Of a DNA stretch of 64,000 nucleotides, positions 21,010 to 37,625 are shown piece after piece. The DNA comes from Escherichia phage vB_EcoM_JNE01: sequence record OR670491; one strand, 5' to 3'. Both the position numbers and the translations under genes were made by a program. The notes beneath the pieces were generated by a model. That model was given only the letters and a program-made list of their open reading frames with translations, was not told where the DNA came from and made no database searches. Positions within the stretch are counted from its first letter, which is position 1. Each line of letters opens with the position of its first letter.

Positions 21010-21165
21010 CATTGGCAGATAAGCCGTAGCCCATAGGGTGCGGGAGTGTATCTATAGAAAAATTAGTTTAGTATAGTTACAATTGTGCACCCGGTGGGTT
21101 AGCTGTTGTCATGGGGTATATTATGCCAGTACTTGATAATTCTGTCAATACTTTTTTTTTACTAT
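21010..21165. ncRNA. candidate convergently transcribed non-coding locus (plus- and minus-strand promoters facing each other across inverted CCCAYMGGGTGC boxes)
   Basis: plus promoter at 20978-21005; minus promoter at 21120-21148; no ORF; boxes at about 21031 and 21090 form an imperfect long inverted repeat; T9 run at about 21155. Confidence 0.3.
21120..21148 (-). promoter_or_regulatory. minus-strand promoter (TTGACA-N17-CATAAT)
   Basis: reverse complement reads ttgacagaattatcaagtactggcataat. Confidence 0.45.
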
Positions 21166-27450: not shown

Positions 27451-27560
27451 AAAAAGTGGTTGACTCCGGTCAGCCATTTTGCTATTATATATTCATTGAG
27501 AGATAGCTCACTAGCCCACAGGGTGCATAAGTGTATCTATTATATGAGTATTGAGTACTG
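27451..27560 (+). promoter_or_regulatory. repeat module: hairpin with embedded TTGACT -35, TATTAT -10, CCCACAGGGTGC box
   Basis: one of four full copies (also about 31468-31575, 34741-34850, 37487-37625). Confidence 0.5.
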
Positions 27561-27671: not shown

Positions 27672-28013
27672 ATGACTATCTCAATTGCTCAATCTAACTT
27701 TGAAAACGAAATCATCGCCCAGGCACTGCGTTTAAATGATGGTCGGGCCGAAATTAATTACGGTTTCAATTCAGGCGGTTGTGAAAAATATCAGTACTTT
27801 GTAACGGCTGATGGCGGTGTCCTGGGTATCAATACAGTTATTGTAAACATCCAAAAAATTAATTTCAATGATCCAGACGATAGCCAGTTTTACATCACTG
27901 GCGTAGACGTGAACTATGAGGATGACTCACTAACTGATGATCACACTGGTGAGAAGTTAGAGAGTGCATACGGTGAAGATGATTATCAGTCAGTACCGGA
28001 AGATTTTGAATAA
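27672..28013 (+). CDS. hypothetical acidic protein
   Basis: ORF from track after promoter + aggggaaacggtttcccct hairpin; acidic C-terminal third. Confidence 0.55.
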   Translation: MTISIAQSNFENEIIAQALRLNDGRAEINYGFNSGGCEKYQYFVTADGGVLGINTVIVNIQKINFNDPDDSQFYITGVDVNYEDDSLTDDHTGEKLESAYGEDDYQSVPEDFE

Positions 28014-28415: not shown

Positions 28416-28595
28416 ATGGCTATCATCGCAAAAACTGAAATCGTTGGTCTGGATTCTATCATCATGACGTTTGAAGATCAAAAAGGTATGTATGTAGTTT
28501 CATATGGTGATTATGTTCGGGAGTATGAAACGGTAGACGAAGCCTTTGAAAGTTATATTCGCCAGGTGAATAAAGCATACGACGACTACCGCTAA
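28416..28595 (+). CDS. small hypothetical protein (59 aa)
   Basis: hand-translated ORF after ttgacaacgtttgatagtactgacataat promoter and AAGGAA RBS. Confidence 0.45.
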   Translation: MAIIAKTEIVGLDSIIMTFEDQKGMYVVSYGDYVREYETVDEAFESYIRQVNKAYDDYR

Positions 28596-29136: not shown

Positions 29137-29165
29137 TTGACAATATCCTCCAGTACTGGCATAAT
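29137..29165 (+). promoter_or_regulatory. promoter (TTGACA-N17-CATAAT) heading a long leader with CCCATAGGGTGC box
   Basis: ttgacaatatcctccagtactggcataat; about 300-nt leader before gene 29462. Confidence 0.55.
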
Positions 29166-29221
29166 ACTTACATCAAGACGAGAACGTCGCTAACCCATAG
29201 GGTGCACAAATGTAACTATAT

Positions 29222-29300
29222 AATATCGATCAATAAATGATCAAAAAAGTACTGGATCAATTTAGCATAAGGCGTATAATTCTGATCAATTCTTGATCAA
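29222..29300. promoter_or_regulatory. cluster of five GATC sites (tgatcaa-type repeats) around a TATAAT element upstream of the TraR/DksA-like gene
   Basis: GATC at about 29228, 29239, 29255, 29284, 29295, as cgatcaat / tgatcaaa / ggatcaat / tgatcaat / tgatcaaa. Confidence 0.5.
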
Positions 29301-29461
29301 AGGCAATATACGCAGTTGAATTTATATAGACAGTACAAAGGCGTTACTATCCGTGGTAATGCTGGTGGATATGTAGTATCATATGGTTTGAATAAGATAA
29401 ACACTAGTAGTATTATTGTAGCATTACAGTACTATAGTATTTTTATAATGAGGTTAAAATA

Positions 29462-29719
29462 ATGGCAGTAGGATACGCGAAAGACGGGGCCGAACAAGAC
29501 GAGATTCACGCAGTGATTCAGGCCGCCGTTAACCACGCTAGAAAGCAAATTAACGCACAAAGAGAATCACTGGTACATTGCCTCGACTGCGGCGATAAAA
29601 TCCCTGAGAATCGACGCCAGGCCGTTATAGGGTGCATGTATTGTATTACTTGCCAGGAGGATCATGATAGTACTTTTAAAAGAGATCCGCGTAATTGTTG
29701 GCATAGATCTATGAGATAA
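29462..29719 (+). CDS. TraR/DksA-family C4 zinc-finger protein (putative RNA polymerase-binding regulator)
   Basis: CLDCGDKIPENRRQAVIGCMYCITCQ matches the TraR/DksA zinc-finger pattern CxxC...IPxxR...CxxCQ; 85 aa; GAGG RBS. Confidence 0.65.
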   Translation: MAVGYAKDGAEQDEIHAVIQAAVNHARKQINAQRESLVHCLDCGDKIPENRRQAVIGCMYCITCQEDHDSTFKRDPRNCWHRSMR

Positions 29720-29725
29720 AAAGTA

Positions 29726-29753
29726 TTGACAGTACTGAAAGATAGTGTATAAT
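29726..29753 (+). promoter_or_regulatory. early promoter (TTGACA-N16-TATAAT)
   Basis: ttgacagtactgaaagatagtgtataat. Confidence 0.6.
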
Positions 29754-29782
29754 GTTTTATATCTTAACTGAGGATAGTAATC

Positions 29783-30139
29783 ATGGGAATACAACATATC
29801 ACGCGTACTACTGACAATGGCGAGATCACTGGTTATCAGGTACAGGGCAAAGTAGCACAATTGCAGTACTGGTTTGTTAAACGTGGAATCATTGCACCGG
29901 ATCTTGATTATGACCGTGTAGCGTTTATTGATTCTCTTTATGTTGATCCTGATAGTCGGGGCAATGGTGAAGGTAACGAATTAATGAATGCCTTTATTGA
30001 TGCCGCCGATGATTCAGATTGTATCATCTTAGAATGCGATACGGGAGAAGATAACGCCTTTAATCTTAAAGAATGGTACGAAGGTTTCGGATTCGAGGTA
30101 CTGATCGATAGTGAATATCCTATCATGATTTTATCATAG
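29783..30139 (+). CDS. hypothetical early protein
   Basis: ORF from track with GAGGA RBS. Confidence 0.55.
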   Translation: MGIQHITRTTDNGEITGYQVQGKVAQLQYWFVKRGIIAPDLDYDRVAFIDSLYVDPDSRGNGEGNELMNAFIDAADDSDCIILECDTGEDNAFNLKEWYEGFGFEVLIDSEYPIMILS

Positions 30140-31467: not shown

Positions 31468-31575
31468 GAAAAAGGGATTGACTCCGGTCAGTCCCTTTGT
31501 TATTATATACGCATAGAAACAAATTAGCCCACCGGGTGCATAAATGTATCTATTGTTTGCTGGTGGCTAGTACTG
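31468..31575 (+). promoter_or_regulatory. repeat module: hairpin gggattgactccggtcagtccc with embedded -35, TATTAT -10, CCCACCGGGTGC box, Chi octamer
   Basis: copy of the 27451-27560 module; GCTGGTGG at about 31559. Confidence 0.5.
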
Positions 31576-34740: not shown

Positions 34741-34850
34741 TAAAAAAAGGGATTGACTCCGGTCAGTCCCTTTGCTATTATATATCCATTGAGAGATAAC
34801 TCACTGACCCATAGGGTGCGGAAGTGTATCTATTATATAAGTATTCAGTA
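34741..34850 (+). promoter_or_regulatory. repeat module: hairpin with embedded -35, TATTAT -10, CCCATAGGGTGC box (copy of 27451-27560)
   Basis: gggattgactccggtcagtccctttgctattatat...gacccatagggtgcggaagtgtatc. Confidence 0.5.
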
Positions 34851-37486: not shown

Positions 37487-37625
37487 AGAATAAAAAAAGG
37501 GATTGACTCCGGTCAGTCCCTTTGCTATTATATACGCATAGACAAAAACTAGCCCACAGGGTGCATAGGTGTATCCAAAATATATAGTTAATAACGGTGA
37601 GTAACTATCTGCTGGTGGAACTAAA
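37487..37625 (+). promoter_or_regulatory. repeat module: hairpin with embedded -35, TATTAT -10, CCCACAGGGTGC box, Chi octamer
   Basis: copy of 27451-27560 module; GCTGGTGG at about 37611. Confidence 0.5.

Follow-up and report, generated by a model that had tools for sequence, protein, structure and literature searches.

A YbiI-subtype DksA/TraR zinc-finger protein with a phage-specific tail, encoded in the terminal repeat of Escherichia phage vB_EcoM_JNE01

The described systems closest to the zinc-finger gene considered here, which lies at 29462-29719 of a 64,000-nucleotide stretch of Escherichia phage vB_EcoM_JNE01 (record OR670491; the window), are F-plasmid TraR, the TraR homologs of temperate phages, DksA, and E. 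coli YbiI. Functional TraR-type proteins have an N-terminal DxxDxA helix that reaches the active site of RNA polymerase (RNAP) (PMC9239242, PMC6970531), and S2 of TraR is 4.3 Å from the catalytic Mg (PMC6970531). In the C4 globular domain of TraR, P43 and P45 are needed for binding, R48 touches the rim helices, and E46, R49 and K50 touch beta'Si3 (PMC9239242, PMC6970531); the C-terminal helix (residues 58-73) touches beta lobe-Si1, and the betaSi1 contact is required for function (PMC9239242). The temperate-phage homologs are lambda Orf73, P2 Orf82, VP882 Orf61 (TraR_VP882), VHML Orf8 and Xenorhabdus (X.) bovienii Gp34. Each of the five was found to bind RNAP, to inhibit rrnB P1 and to complement a dksA deletion (PMC9239242); such homologs inhibit rRNA and ribosomal-protein promoters, slow host growth and increase burst size (PMC9239242; bioRxiv 10.64898/2026.07.27.740977), and promoters of the RNA-1 type are unaffected (PMC9239242). 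For YbiI, whose chromosomal gene lies in an iron-metabolism cluster (PMC2613031), overexpression rescues the auxotrophy of a dksA deletion, according to a remark given as 'data not shown' (PMC2613031); the literature on YbiI and DksA-like phage proteins yielded no functional data beyond that remark.

Family membership, relatives and purifying selection

The open reading frame (ORF) runs on the + strand from an ATG at 29462 to a TAA ending at 29719 (85 codons), preceded by a Shine-Dalgarno sequence, GAGG (29450-29453, + strand), which lies 8 nucleotides 5' of the ATG and is invariant in four Asteriusviruses. Its 85-residue product, MAVGYAKDGAEQDEIHAVIQAAVNHARKQINAQRESLVHCLDCGDKIPENRRQAVIGCMYCITCQEDHDSTFKRDPRNCWHRSMR, contains the Cys-rich string CLDCGDKIPENRRQAVIGCMYCITCQ, so that the C4 reading frame described in a first-pass annotation of the window is confirmed. 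That string holds five Cys residues. The zinc ligands are C40, C43, C61 and C64, which are invariant in 47 homologs and delimit a CxxC-17-CxxC zinc ribbon (29579-29653, + strand); C58 is an extra, non-conserved Cys, with Val at this position in many homologs.

The same annotation had placed the product in the TraR/DksA family, and profile searches and matches to solved structures bear this out. Pfam PF01258 (zf-dskA_traR) aligns with residues 39-68 at 36.9 bits, above its gathering score of 24.9 (E = 3.7e-9), and PHROG 54 ('DksA-like zinc-finger protein') matches with E = 8e-19. The best NCBIfam model is the YbiI equivalog NF008243 (78.6 bits, E = 3.5e-22, aligned residues 1-73), with the C-terminal tail outside the alignment and the score below the equivalog cutoff of 96. 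Among PDB sequences, E. coli YbiI (2KGO) matches residues 1-69 with E = 2.4e-11, and TraR (6N57, 5W1S) matches residues 18-68 with E of ~5e-6. The family match is far above chance level. GenBank already annotates the gene in this way ('DksA-like zinc-finger protein', 'TraR/DksA C4-type zinc finger protein', 'C-4 type zinc finger protein'), so the identification is correct and not new, and in practice it mainly confirms the existing database annotation. A role as a component of a defence system was discarded, PADLOC having given only a 15-bit match (E = 0.0017).

Structure prediction, which had been proposed as a check, agrees with the family assignment in that the predicted fold matches YbiI, RNAP-bound TraR and DksA proteins. 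An AlphaFold2 run with the 47-sequence alignment gave a model of moderate confidence (mean predicted local distance difference test score, pLDDT, of 71; predicted template modeling score of 0.47), which consists of a single long N-terminal helix (residues 6-28) joined to a globular zinc domain with the zinc ribbon and a short helix (62-68), followed by a low-confidence tail that is a basic, Pro-containing coil (pLDDT ~51-64). Foldseek comparison of the model with the PDB ranks YbiI (2KGO) first, then RNAP-bound TraR (6N57, 5W1S), and then chlamydial Dks, DksA and DksA2; for 6N57 chain M the probability is 1.00 and the template modeling (TM) scores are 0.45 and 0.52.

The protein is placed in the DksA/TraR family as a member of the YbiI subtype that has a phage-specific tail, and not as TraR proper, because the tip motif is incomplete, the N-terminus is longer, a long C-terminal helix is not predicted and the equivalog scores are below threshold. 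YbiI is the top match by both sequence and fold; the two proteins (88 and 85 residues, respectively) share the tip, the IPExRR patch and the C4 spacing, but the YbiI tail is YNRRGSKDSQLR, whereas that of the phage protein is FKRxPRNCWHRSMR, and, in contrast to the chromosomal ybiI locus, the phage gene is accompanied by sigma-70 consensus promoters. With DksA it has in common the zinc-finger globular domain and a tip Asp and Ala equivalent to DksA D74 and A76; the phage protein (85 residues versus 151) has no two-helix coiled coil, no ppGpp (guanosine tetraphosphate)-binding residues and no predicted long C-terminal helix.

The source phage is an Asteriusvirus, a jumbo myovirus of E. coli of the 121Q/PBECO4 type. 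Over the 1.5 kb surrounding the gene, identity is 99.4% to WPEC3 and 99.3% to Ecwhy_1 and fEgEco12, and the protein itself is 100% identical in Ecwhy_1. The homolog search, which covered 5.8 billion proteins, returned 47 relatives in three groups: Asteriusvirus proteins (88-96% identity); a large group at 62-72% identity, all of whose named sources are T4-like phages (Citrobacter phage Moon, Escherichia phage vB_EcoM_RZ, and Yersinia phages MHG19 and fHe-Yen9-01); and bacterial proteins of 88 residues (42-51% identity). Searching 50,697 phage records by tblastn, which added the T4-like homologs of Shigella phage SP18 and Klebsiella phage vB_Kpn_F48, found a relative in 953 records, at 60% identity or more in 149 and as full-length copies in 438; the form with the phage tail occurs in about 150 records, from Asteriusvirus and many T4-like phages. 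The T4-like homologs (SP18 gp103, vB_Kpn_F48 gp040 and those of Moon and fHe-Yen9-01) are 65-72% identical over their full length, with identical tip and tail, and also lie amid small accessory genes, but with other neighbors and without the terminal-repeat location described below. In a profile search of 1.84 billion representatives, 2,526 clusters matched at E <= 0.001, 320 at E <= 1e-10 and one at E <= 1e-30; because only a single cluster is found at the last threshold, the phage form is one tight cluster within a large YbiI-type continuum.

Selection on the gene was evaluated by Nei-Gojobori comparison of seven phage genes (four from Asteriusvirus and three T4-like). Over the whole gene the proportion of synonymous differences (pS) is 0.68 and that of nonsynonymous differences (pN) 0.16, giving a pN/pS of 0.24. 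The ratio falls to 0.014 in tip residues 1-12 (pS 0.70) and to 0.16 in tail residues 69-85, and synonymous sites are near saturation. The last ten residues (76-85), PRNCWHRSMR, do not vary among the seven phages, even though their codons carry synonymous changes, a TCT<->AGC switch at Ser included. The gene is thus real and under strong purifying selection, with both ends the most constrained. This result effectively refutes the notion of a non-functional passenger or decaying gene, and the full-length copies in the 438 phage records and retention across Asteriusvirus, including members that infect Salmonella, also speak against it; that notion keeps next to no probability, although truncated derivatives do occur in some T4-like phages (ST0 gp010, PHROG 25948) and one copy matches in two pieces.

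The truncated derivatives bear on whether the tail is an independent module, as a match of phage ST0 and PHROG 25948 to residues 47-85 might imply; this was rejected, the matches being recombinant remnants. ST0 gp010 (L010 653-820) joins a foreign N-terminus, which resembles the start of a nearby downstream ORF (L010 837-1127), to the last ~30 residues of a DksA-like protein, leaving two of the four Cys, and PHROG 25948 seems to group truncated derivatives of this kind. The copy in two pieces is that of Escherichia phage CMSTMSU (MH494197.1, 121380-121630; 63% identity), where a frameshift or sequencing error may be responsible. ORFs on the antisense strand of the gene (29567-29860 and others) gave no significant match in family searches, and one of them spans the next promoter; they were not retained as genes.

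Tip, contact patch and tail

Comparison with TraR, to which the phage protein is 26-27% identical, concerns three regions. The first is the N-terminal tip (codons 1-12, MAVGYAKDGAEQ; 29462-29497, + strand), which is near-invariant in the 47 homologs and is of the form MA-x-G-[F/W/Y]-A-x-D-G-A, shared with the YbiI type of bacteria, that is, with the bacterial 88-residue proteins and with 2KGO. Its segment Y5-A-K-D8-G-A10, set against TraR D3-x-x-D6-x-A8, keeps the second Asp and the Ala, and an aromatic residue takes the place of the first Asp. The conserved Asp stands 31 residues from the first zinc Cys in both TraR and YbiI, 32 in the phage protein and 29 in lambda Orf73 (the TraR and lambda Orf73-type sequences were checked against database records); D8 and A10 therefore align with TraR D6 and A8, and D3 is replaced by Y5, which is F or W in relatives. 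An ungapped MAFFT alignment of the N-terminus to TraR was set aside as arbitrary, and the register rests instead on the Asp-Cys distance and the subfamily consensus. Among the best 150 representatives of the profile search, [FWY]xxDxA stands at the proper spacing to the first zinc Cys in 76 of the 119 that could be scored, and a TraR-like xxADEA tip is found in only one (P0098).

The second region is the patch I47-P48-E49-N50-R51-R52 (29600-29617, + strand), equivalent to TraR I44-P45-E46-A47-R48-R49 and thus a predicted contact with the RNAP rim helices and beta'Si3 (numbering in the globular domain is shifted by three, TraR residue n matching residue n+3 of the phage protein). I47, P48, R51, R52 and G57 (TraR G54) are invariant in the 47 homologs and E49 reaches at least 90% conservation; at the positions of TraR P43 and K50 conservation is lacking. 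The phage protein therefore resembles TraR in its single N-terminal helix and C4 zinc ribbon, in the equivalents of P45, E46, R48, R49 and G54, and in the second tip Asp and the tip Ala, but differs from it at D3, P43 and K50 and at the C-terminus. Compared with the temperate-phage homologs, it is likewise a small phage-encoded family member, and Gp34 is also without the first Asp; the subtype differs, however, in its YbiI-like tip and phage tail.

The consequences of a tip without the first Asp are illustrated by the characterized proteins. Gp34 of X. bovienii, which naturally has no D3, binds RNAP as well as TraR does and inhibits rrnB P1 ~8-fold more weakly (PMC9239242), and the tip aspartates of DksA are needed for function but not for binding (PMC9239242). 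These precedents, together with a binding surface whose residues are invariant and a tip motif that is incomplete, lend some weight to the view that the phage protein is a channel blocker, binding the secondary channel with little allosteric effect and excluding DksA (with ppGpp site 2), GreA and GreB, so that polymerase would cease to respond to the stringent response of the host during infection, or would be changed in elongation or proofreading; non-functional competitors that bind the channel are known, for example Rnk. A passive plug would not be expected, however, to have its most extreme constraint in the tip, and overexpressed YbiI reportedly replaces DksA in vivo, which argues for DksA-like activity and not for antagonism. 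The blocker view is regarded as unlikely. The constraint on the tip fits a contact of this segment with RNAP's highly conserved active-site region.

The third region is the phage-specific C-terminal tail (codons 72-85, FKRDPRNCWHRSMR; 29675-29716, + strand), near-invariant in the retrieved Asteriusvirus and T4-like homologs, in which the terminal sequence is FKRxPRNCWHRSMR. YbiI-type proteins of bacteria terminate in YNRRGSKDSQLR, where this phage protein has PRNCWHRSMR; among the same best 150 representatives at least 45 have the bacterial ending and only one the phage tail. The invariance of the tail points to a second specific contact, one that TraR would not have. The related Klebsiella jumbo phage K64-1 (Alcyoneusvirus) encodes a YbiI-type protein, gp330 (L009 2501-2761), with the bacterial tail YYNRRGSKDSQLR, so both tail types are used by phages.

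Each of the two tail types is highly conserved and strongly basic, a property that, with family scores below the cutoffs and the existence of C4 'DksA/TraR' proteins that are not DksA-like in action, could also suit a YbiI subtype whose function has nothing to do with RNAP (metal or iron homeostasis, or nucleic-acid binding by zinc ribbon and basic tail), a function that the phage copy would exploit. Against this stands the fact that the invariant residues are exactly those of the TraR contacts with the rim helices and Si3, in an architecture that matches RNAP-bound TraR; moreover, the tip motif and further features are absent from the known non-functional proteins, but D8 and A10 are retained in this one. 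A function of this kind is considered distinctly improbable.

A more speculative and rather doubtful proposal, also concerned with the two constrained ends, is that YbiI-type proteins, and especially the phage form with the PRNCWHRSMR tail, are a mechanistically distinct class of secondary-channel factor, in which the aromatic tip, longer by 2-3 residues, could reach or occlude the active site or the path of nucleoside triphosphate entry instead of working as the tips of TraR and DksA do, and the basic tail with its Cys, His and Trp could contact RNAP, nucleic acid or a second metal. If true, this would be a takeover function common to jumbo and T4-like enterobacterial phages and unlike the promoter-selective inhibition of the TraR style. 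The YbiI subtype is widespread in bacteria, and a phage copy with two highly constrained ends provides a handle on YbiI-type function.

The terminal repeat and the proposed action on host RNA polymerase

The first-pass annotation had located the gene in an early block, and its surroundings accord well with that description: it is found amid small + strand genes with consensus sigma-70 promoters inside a direct terminal repeat (DTR) of ~21 kb. The DTR was mapped to ~17757-38960 (right boundary approximate) by BLAST of the annotated 21,525-bp DTR of phage vB_Ec-M-J, within which the corresponding gene, EcMJ_029, is at 12,349-12,606. In fEgEco12 a DTR of 20,993 bp was found by PhageTerm and confirmed by restriction digests (PMC13070987), and the Sharanji phage paper gives a repeat of 20,668 bp. 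Since the window extends on both sides of the DTR, the record has a collapsed repeat; mapping places the zinc-finger gene ~11.7 kb from the physical left end of the DTR, in two copies per virion genome, and longer phage records show two matching places for the gene region, consistent with two DTR copies. This location in a strictly lytic jumbo phage differs from that of the temperate-phage TraR genes, which occupy lysis-lysogeny or early regulatory regions.

The DTR is an array of ~50 small genes, mostly of unassigned function, of which the annotated ones are all on the + strand and most carry their own consensus promoter. The stretch from 22 to 38 kb has 11 perfect TTGACA-16/17-TATAAT sites, all on the + strand, and 20 of the 30 + strand promoter sites in the window that match at 11 or more of 12 positions fall within the 21-kb DTR. 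In its layout the DTR is reminiscent of the terminal-repeat pre-early genes of phage T5. In the 8-nucleotide discriminators of these + strand promoters, of which AGTTTACA and GTTTTACA are examples, the mean G/C count is 2.0. The core of E. coli rrn P1, TTGTCA-16-TATAAT, which was verified in all 5,426 complete genomes and ~280 nucleotides upstream of a 16S gene, is followed by the discriminator GCGCCACC, with G or C at seven of eight positions. Work of the Gourse laboratory has linked G+C-rich discriminators and short-lived open complexes to the sensitivity of promoters to DksA/ppGpp and to TraR. By analogy, phage promoters with A+T-rich discriminators would be spared.

That the product might redirect host transcription, as the earlier annotation suggested, is a fair expectation given that five temperate-phage TraR homologs bind RNAP and inhibit rrnB P1 (PMC9239242). 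The reading preferred here, to which a somewhat better than even chance is assigned, is that the protein would serve early in host takeover by binding the RNAP secondary channel, both the binding and its effect being deduced by analogy. Because the gene lies ~11.7 kb inside the left DTR end, among genes with consensus host-type promoters, the host sigma-70 RNAP would transcribe it immediately after DNA entry. The protein would then dock on the beta' rim helices by means of the invariant IPExRR/Gly patch, as do TraR and lambda Orf73, and its N-terminal helix would enter the secondary channel, putting the tip MAVG[F/Y]AKDGA beside the active site. Occupancy of the channel would alter the kinetics of initiation, so that rRNA and ribosomal-protein promoters, with their G+C-rich discriminators and short-lived open complexes, would lose, and the phage consensus promoters with A+T-rich discriminators would not. 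This would free host polymerase for the phage, which seems to encode a sigma factor yet lack its own polymerase. In this scheme the tail FKRxPRNCWHRSMR would stand in for the TraR C-terminal helix and the bacterial YbiI tail, and a phage-specific contact made by it would probably modify the outcome.

With regard to the sigma factor, both the fEgEco12 paper (PMC13070987) and the Sharanji paper describe one encoded by the phage, and the authors of the latter infer its association with host RNAP. A phage RNAP gene goes unmentioned in these two papers, and no whole-genome scan for one was made. If action on the secondary channel is correct, large strictly lytic phages would carry a TraR-like device for reprogramming host RNAP from the first minutes of infection, which would widen the reach of a mechanism hitherto established only in a conjugative plasmid and in temperate phages.

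Several observations weigh against a TraR-like action on RNAP. Only two-thirds of the DxxDxA motif is present, the first Asp being missing throughout the subtype, and since the D3N substitution strongly impairs lambda Orf73 (PMC9239242), any TraR-like inhibition could here be weak or of another kind. Compared with TraR, the N-terminus has 2-3 extra residues, an unfavorable feature because S2 of TraR is already so close to the catalytic Mg. A long C-terminal helix like that of TraR is not predicted in the AlphaFold2 model (pLDDT 71). The YbiI equivalog cutoff is missed, and TraR models also score below their cutoffs (TIGR02419, C4_traR_proteo, 49.1 versus 59.7; NF010268, TraR, 31.6 versus 108), as does the DksA model NF033459 (14.2 bits versus 105). 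The TM-scores are low (0.37-0.52) and the confidence of the model is moderate, although low TM-scores are expected for a small protein in which helix and domain are flexibly joined. Finally, some C4 'DksA/TraR' proteins do not act on RNAP, and a literature search for transcriptome, pull-down or in vitro data on YbiI-type phage proteins found none.

Expression unit, leader and neighboring genes

Neighboring genes have a promoter 20-57 nucleotides from their ATG, and the zinc-finger gene is without a strong promoter directly upstream. The closest strong promoter 5' of it, P1 (TTGACA-17-(TGg)CATAAT, with an extended -10; 29137-29165, + strand), was found in promoter scans and has a core invariant in four phages; no terminator-like site was predicted in the interval between P1 and the gene. 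A possible second promoter, P2 (CTGGAT-17-TATAAT; 29252-29280, + strand), is suggested by the sequence and by alignment of five leader modules, and corresponds to the TTGCAT/TTGCAA-type second promoter of the repeated module described below. Downstream of both lies an ORF of 48 codons with a TTG start (29316-29462, + strand; PHROG 38664, E = 3.7e-31; gene 293 in 121Q), whose TAA stop codon shares 1 nucleotide with the ATG of the zinc-finger gene (TAATG). It is conserved within Asteriusvirus and remains open in the divergent Salmonella phage SD-1_S14, at 63% identity. Because of the TAATG overlap, the conservation of the 48-codon ORF and the position of the promoters upstream of it, the zinc-finger gene is most likely the second, translationally coupled cistron of this unit. 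The segment GGYVVSYG of the 48-residue product resembles GMYVVSYG in the 59-residue product of 28416-28595, and the two may be diverged paralogs within the DTR.

This arrangement brings to mind VP882, where TraR acts in complex with the small co-expressed protein QisA and the growth arrest is far stronger than with TraR alone (bioRxiv 10.64898/2026.07.27.740977). By the same logic the phage protein might act only in complex with a small co-expressed partner, for which the product of the overlapping 48-codon ORF would be the candidate; this is a variant of the secondary-channel explanation and does not exclude it. The conservation of this ORF within Asteriusvirus is in keeping with such a role, but the zinc-finger protein and its tail are also conserved in T4-like phages, in which the upstream and downstream neighbors are unrelated to those of Asteriusvirus, so that no conserved neighboring gene remains as a QisA-like partner. 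An obligate partner is given a slim chance.

Immediately 5' of the ATG, ~50 nucleotides (29410-29461, + strand) are near-invariant in the alignment of four Asteriusviruses, with one substitution (in SD-1_S14). This segment also encodes the end of the 48-codon ORF, and the first 12 codons of the zinc-finger gene do show synonymous changes; within it, ATTACA-15-TATAAT at 29423-29449 resembles a degenerate copy of the standard promoter of the repeat region. The pattern of conservation suggests a regulatory element that overlaps the coding sequence.

Downstream of the zinc-finger gene, 29783-30139 (+ strand) encodes a GNAT acetyltransferase of 118 residues (Pfam PF00583) with a perfect promoter of its own at 29726-29753. 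It is present in E. coli Asteriusviruses and missing at this position in Salmonella phage SD-1_S14; as it is not adjacent to the zinc-finger gene in that phage or in T4-like phages, it was rejected as a functional partner. Rac, a GNAT-like protein of phiKMV-like phages, is reported to inactivate host RNAP (PMC7552054). The remaining neighbors belong to phage families without assigned function. A further product in the window, of 113 residues (27672-28013), is labeled 'DNA ligase' in vB_Ec-M-J (EcMJ_024); Pfam gives no match, and its sole link to ligases is a weak match to a small PHROG with that label, which is therefore probably an over-annotation. In T4-like phages the homolog is found in the tk-mobD-nrdC block of small accessory genes.

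The literature on Asteriusvirus expression yielded no transcriptomic data, and an Rfam scan of the window gave nothing at gathering thresholds. The window does contain a repeated leader module of ~200 bp, which contains a promoter, TTGACT-17-TATTAT, embedded in a hairpin with a 12-bp stem (AAAGGGATTGACTCCGGTCAGTCCCTTT); these promoters lie at 27453-27480, 31471-31498, 34746-34773 and 37496-37523. The hairpin promoter is followed by a conserved CCAYAGGGTGCAYAAATGTA element, present in 5 copies against 0.01 expected (21078-21097 on the - strand, 27516-27535, 29195-29214, 31529-31548 and 34809-34828), and then by the TTGCAT/TTGCAA-type second promoter. One copy of the module forms the leader of the zinc-finger operon, and it too has no match in Rfam. 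The module may act as a binding site for a regulator or as a short RNA.

The leader of the zinc-finger operon also holds five GATCAA motifs (containing the Dam site GATC) inside 73 nucleotides (29228-29300). These are 5 of the 18 GATCAA motifs in the whole 64 kb, a clustering reached in 0 of 200 shuffles, and GATC itself is under-represented in the window (146 sites versus ~211 expected). In SD-1_S14 the first three of the five motifs are kept and the last two are lost, with one extra motif nearby.

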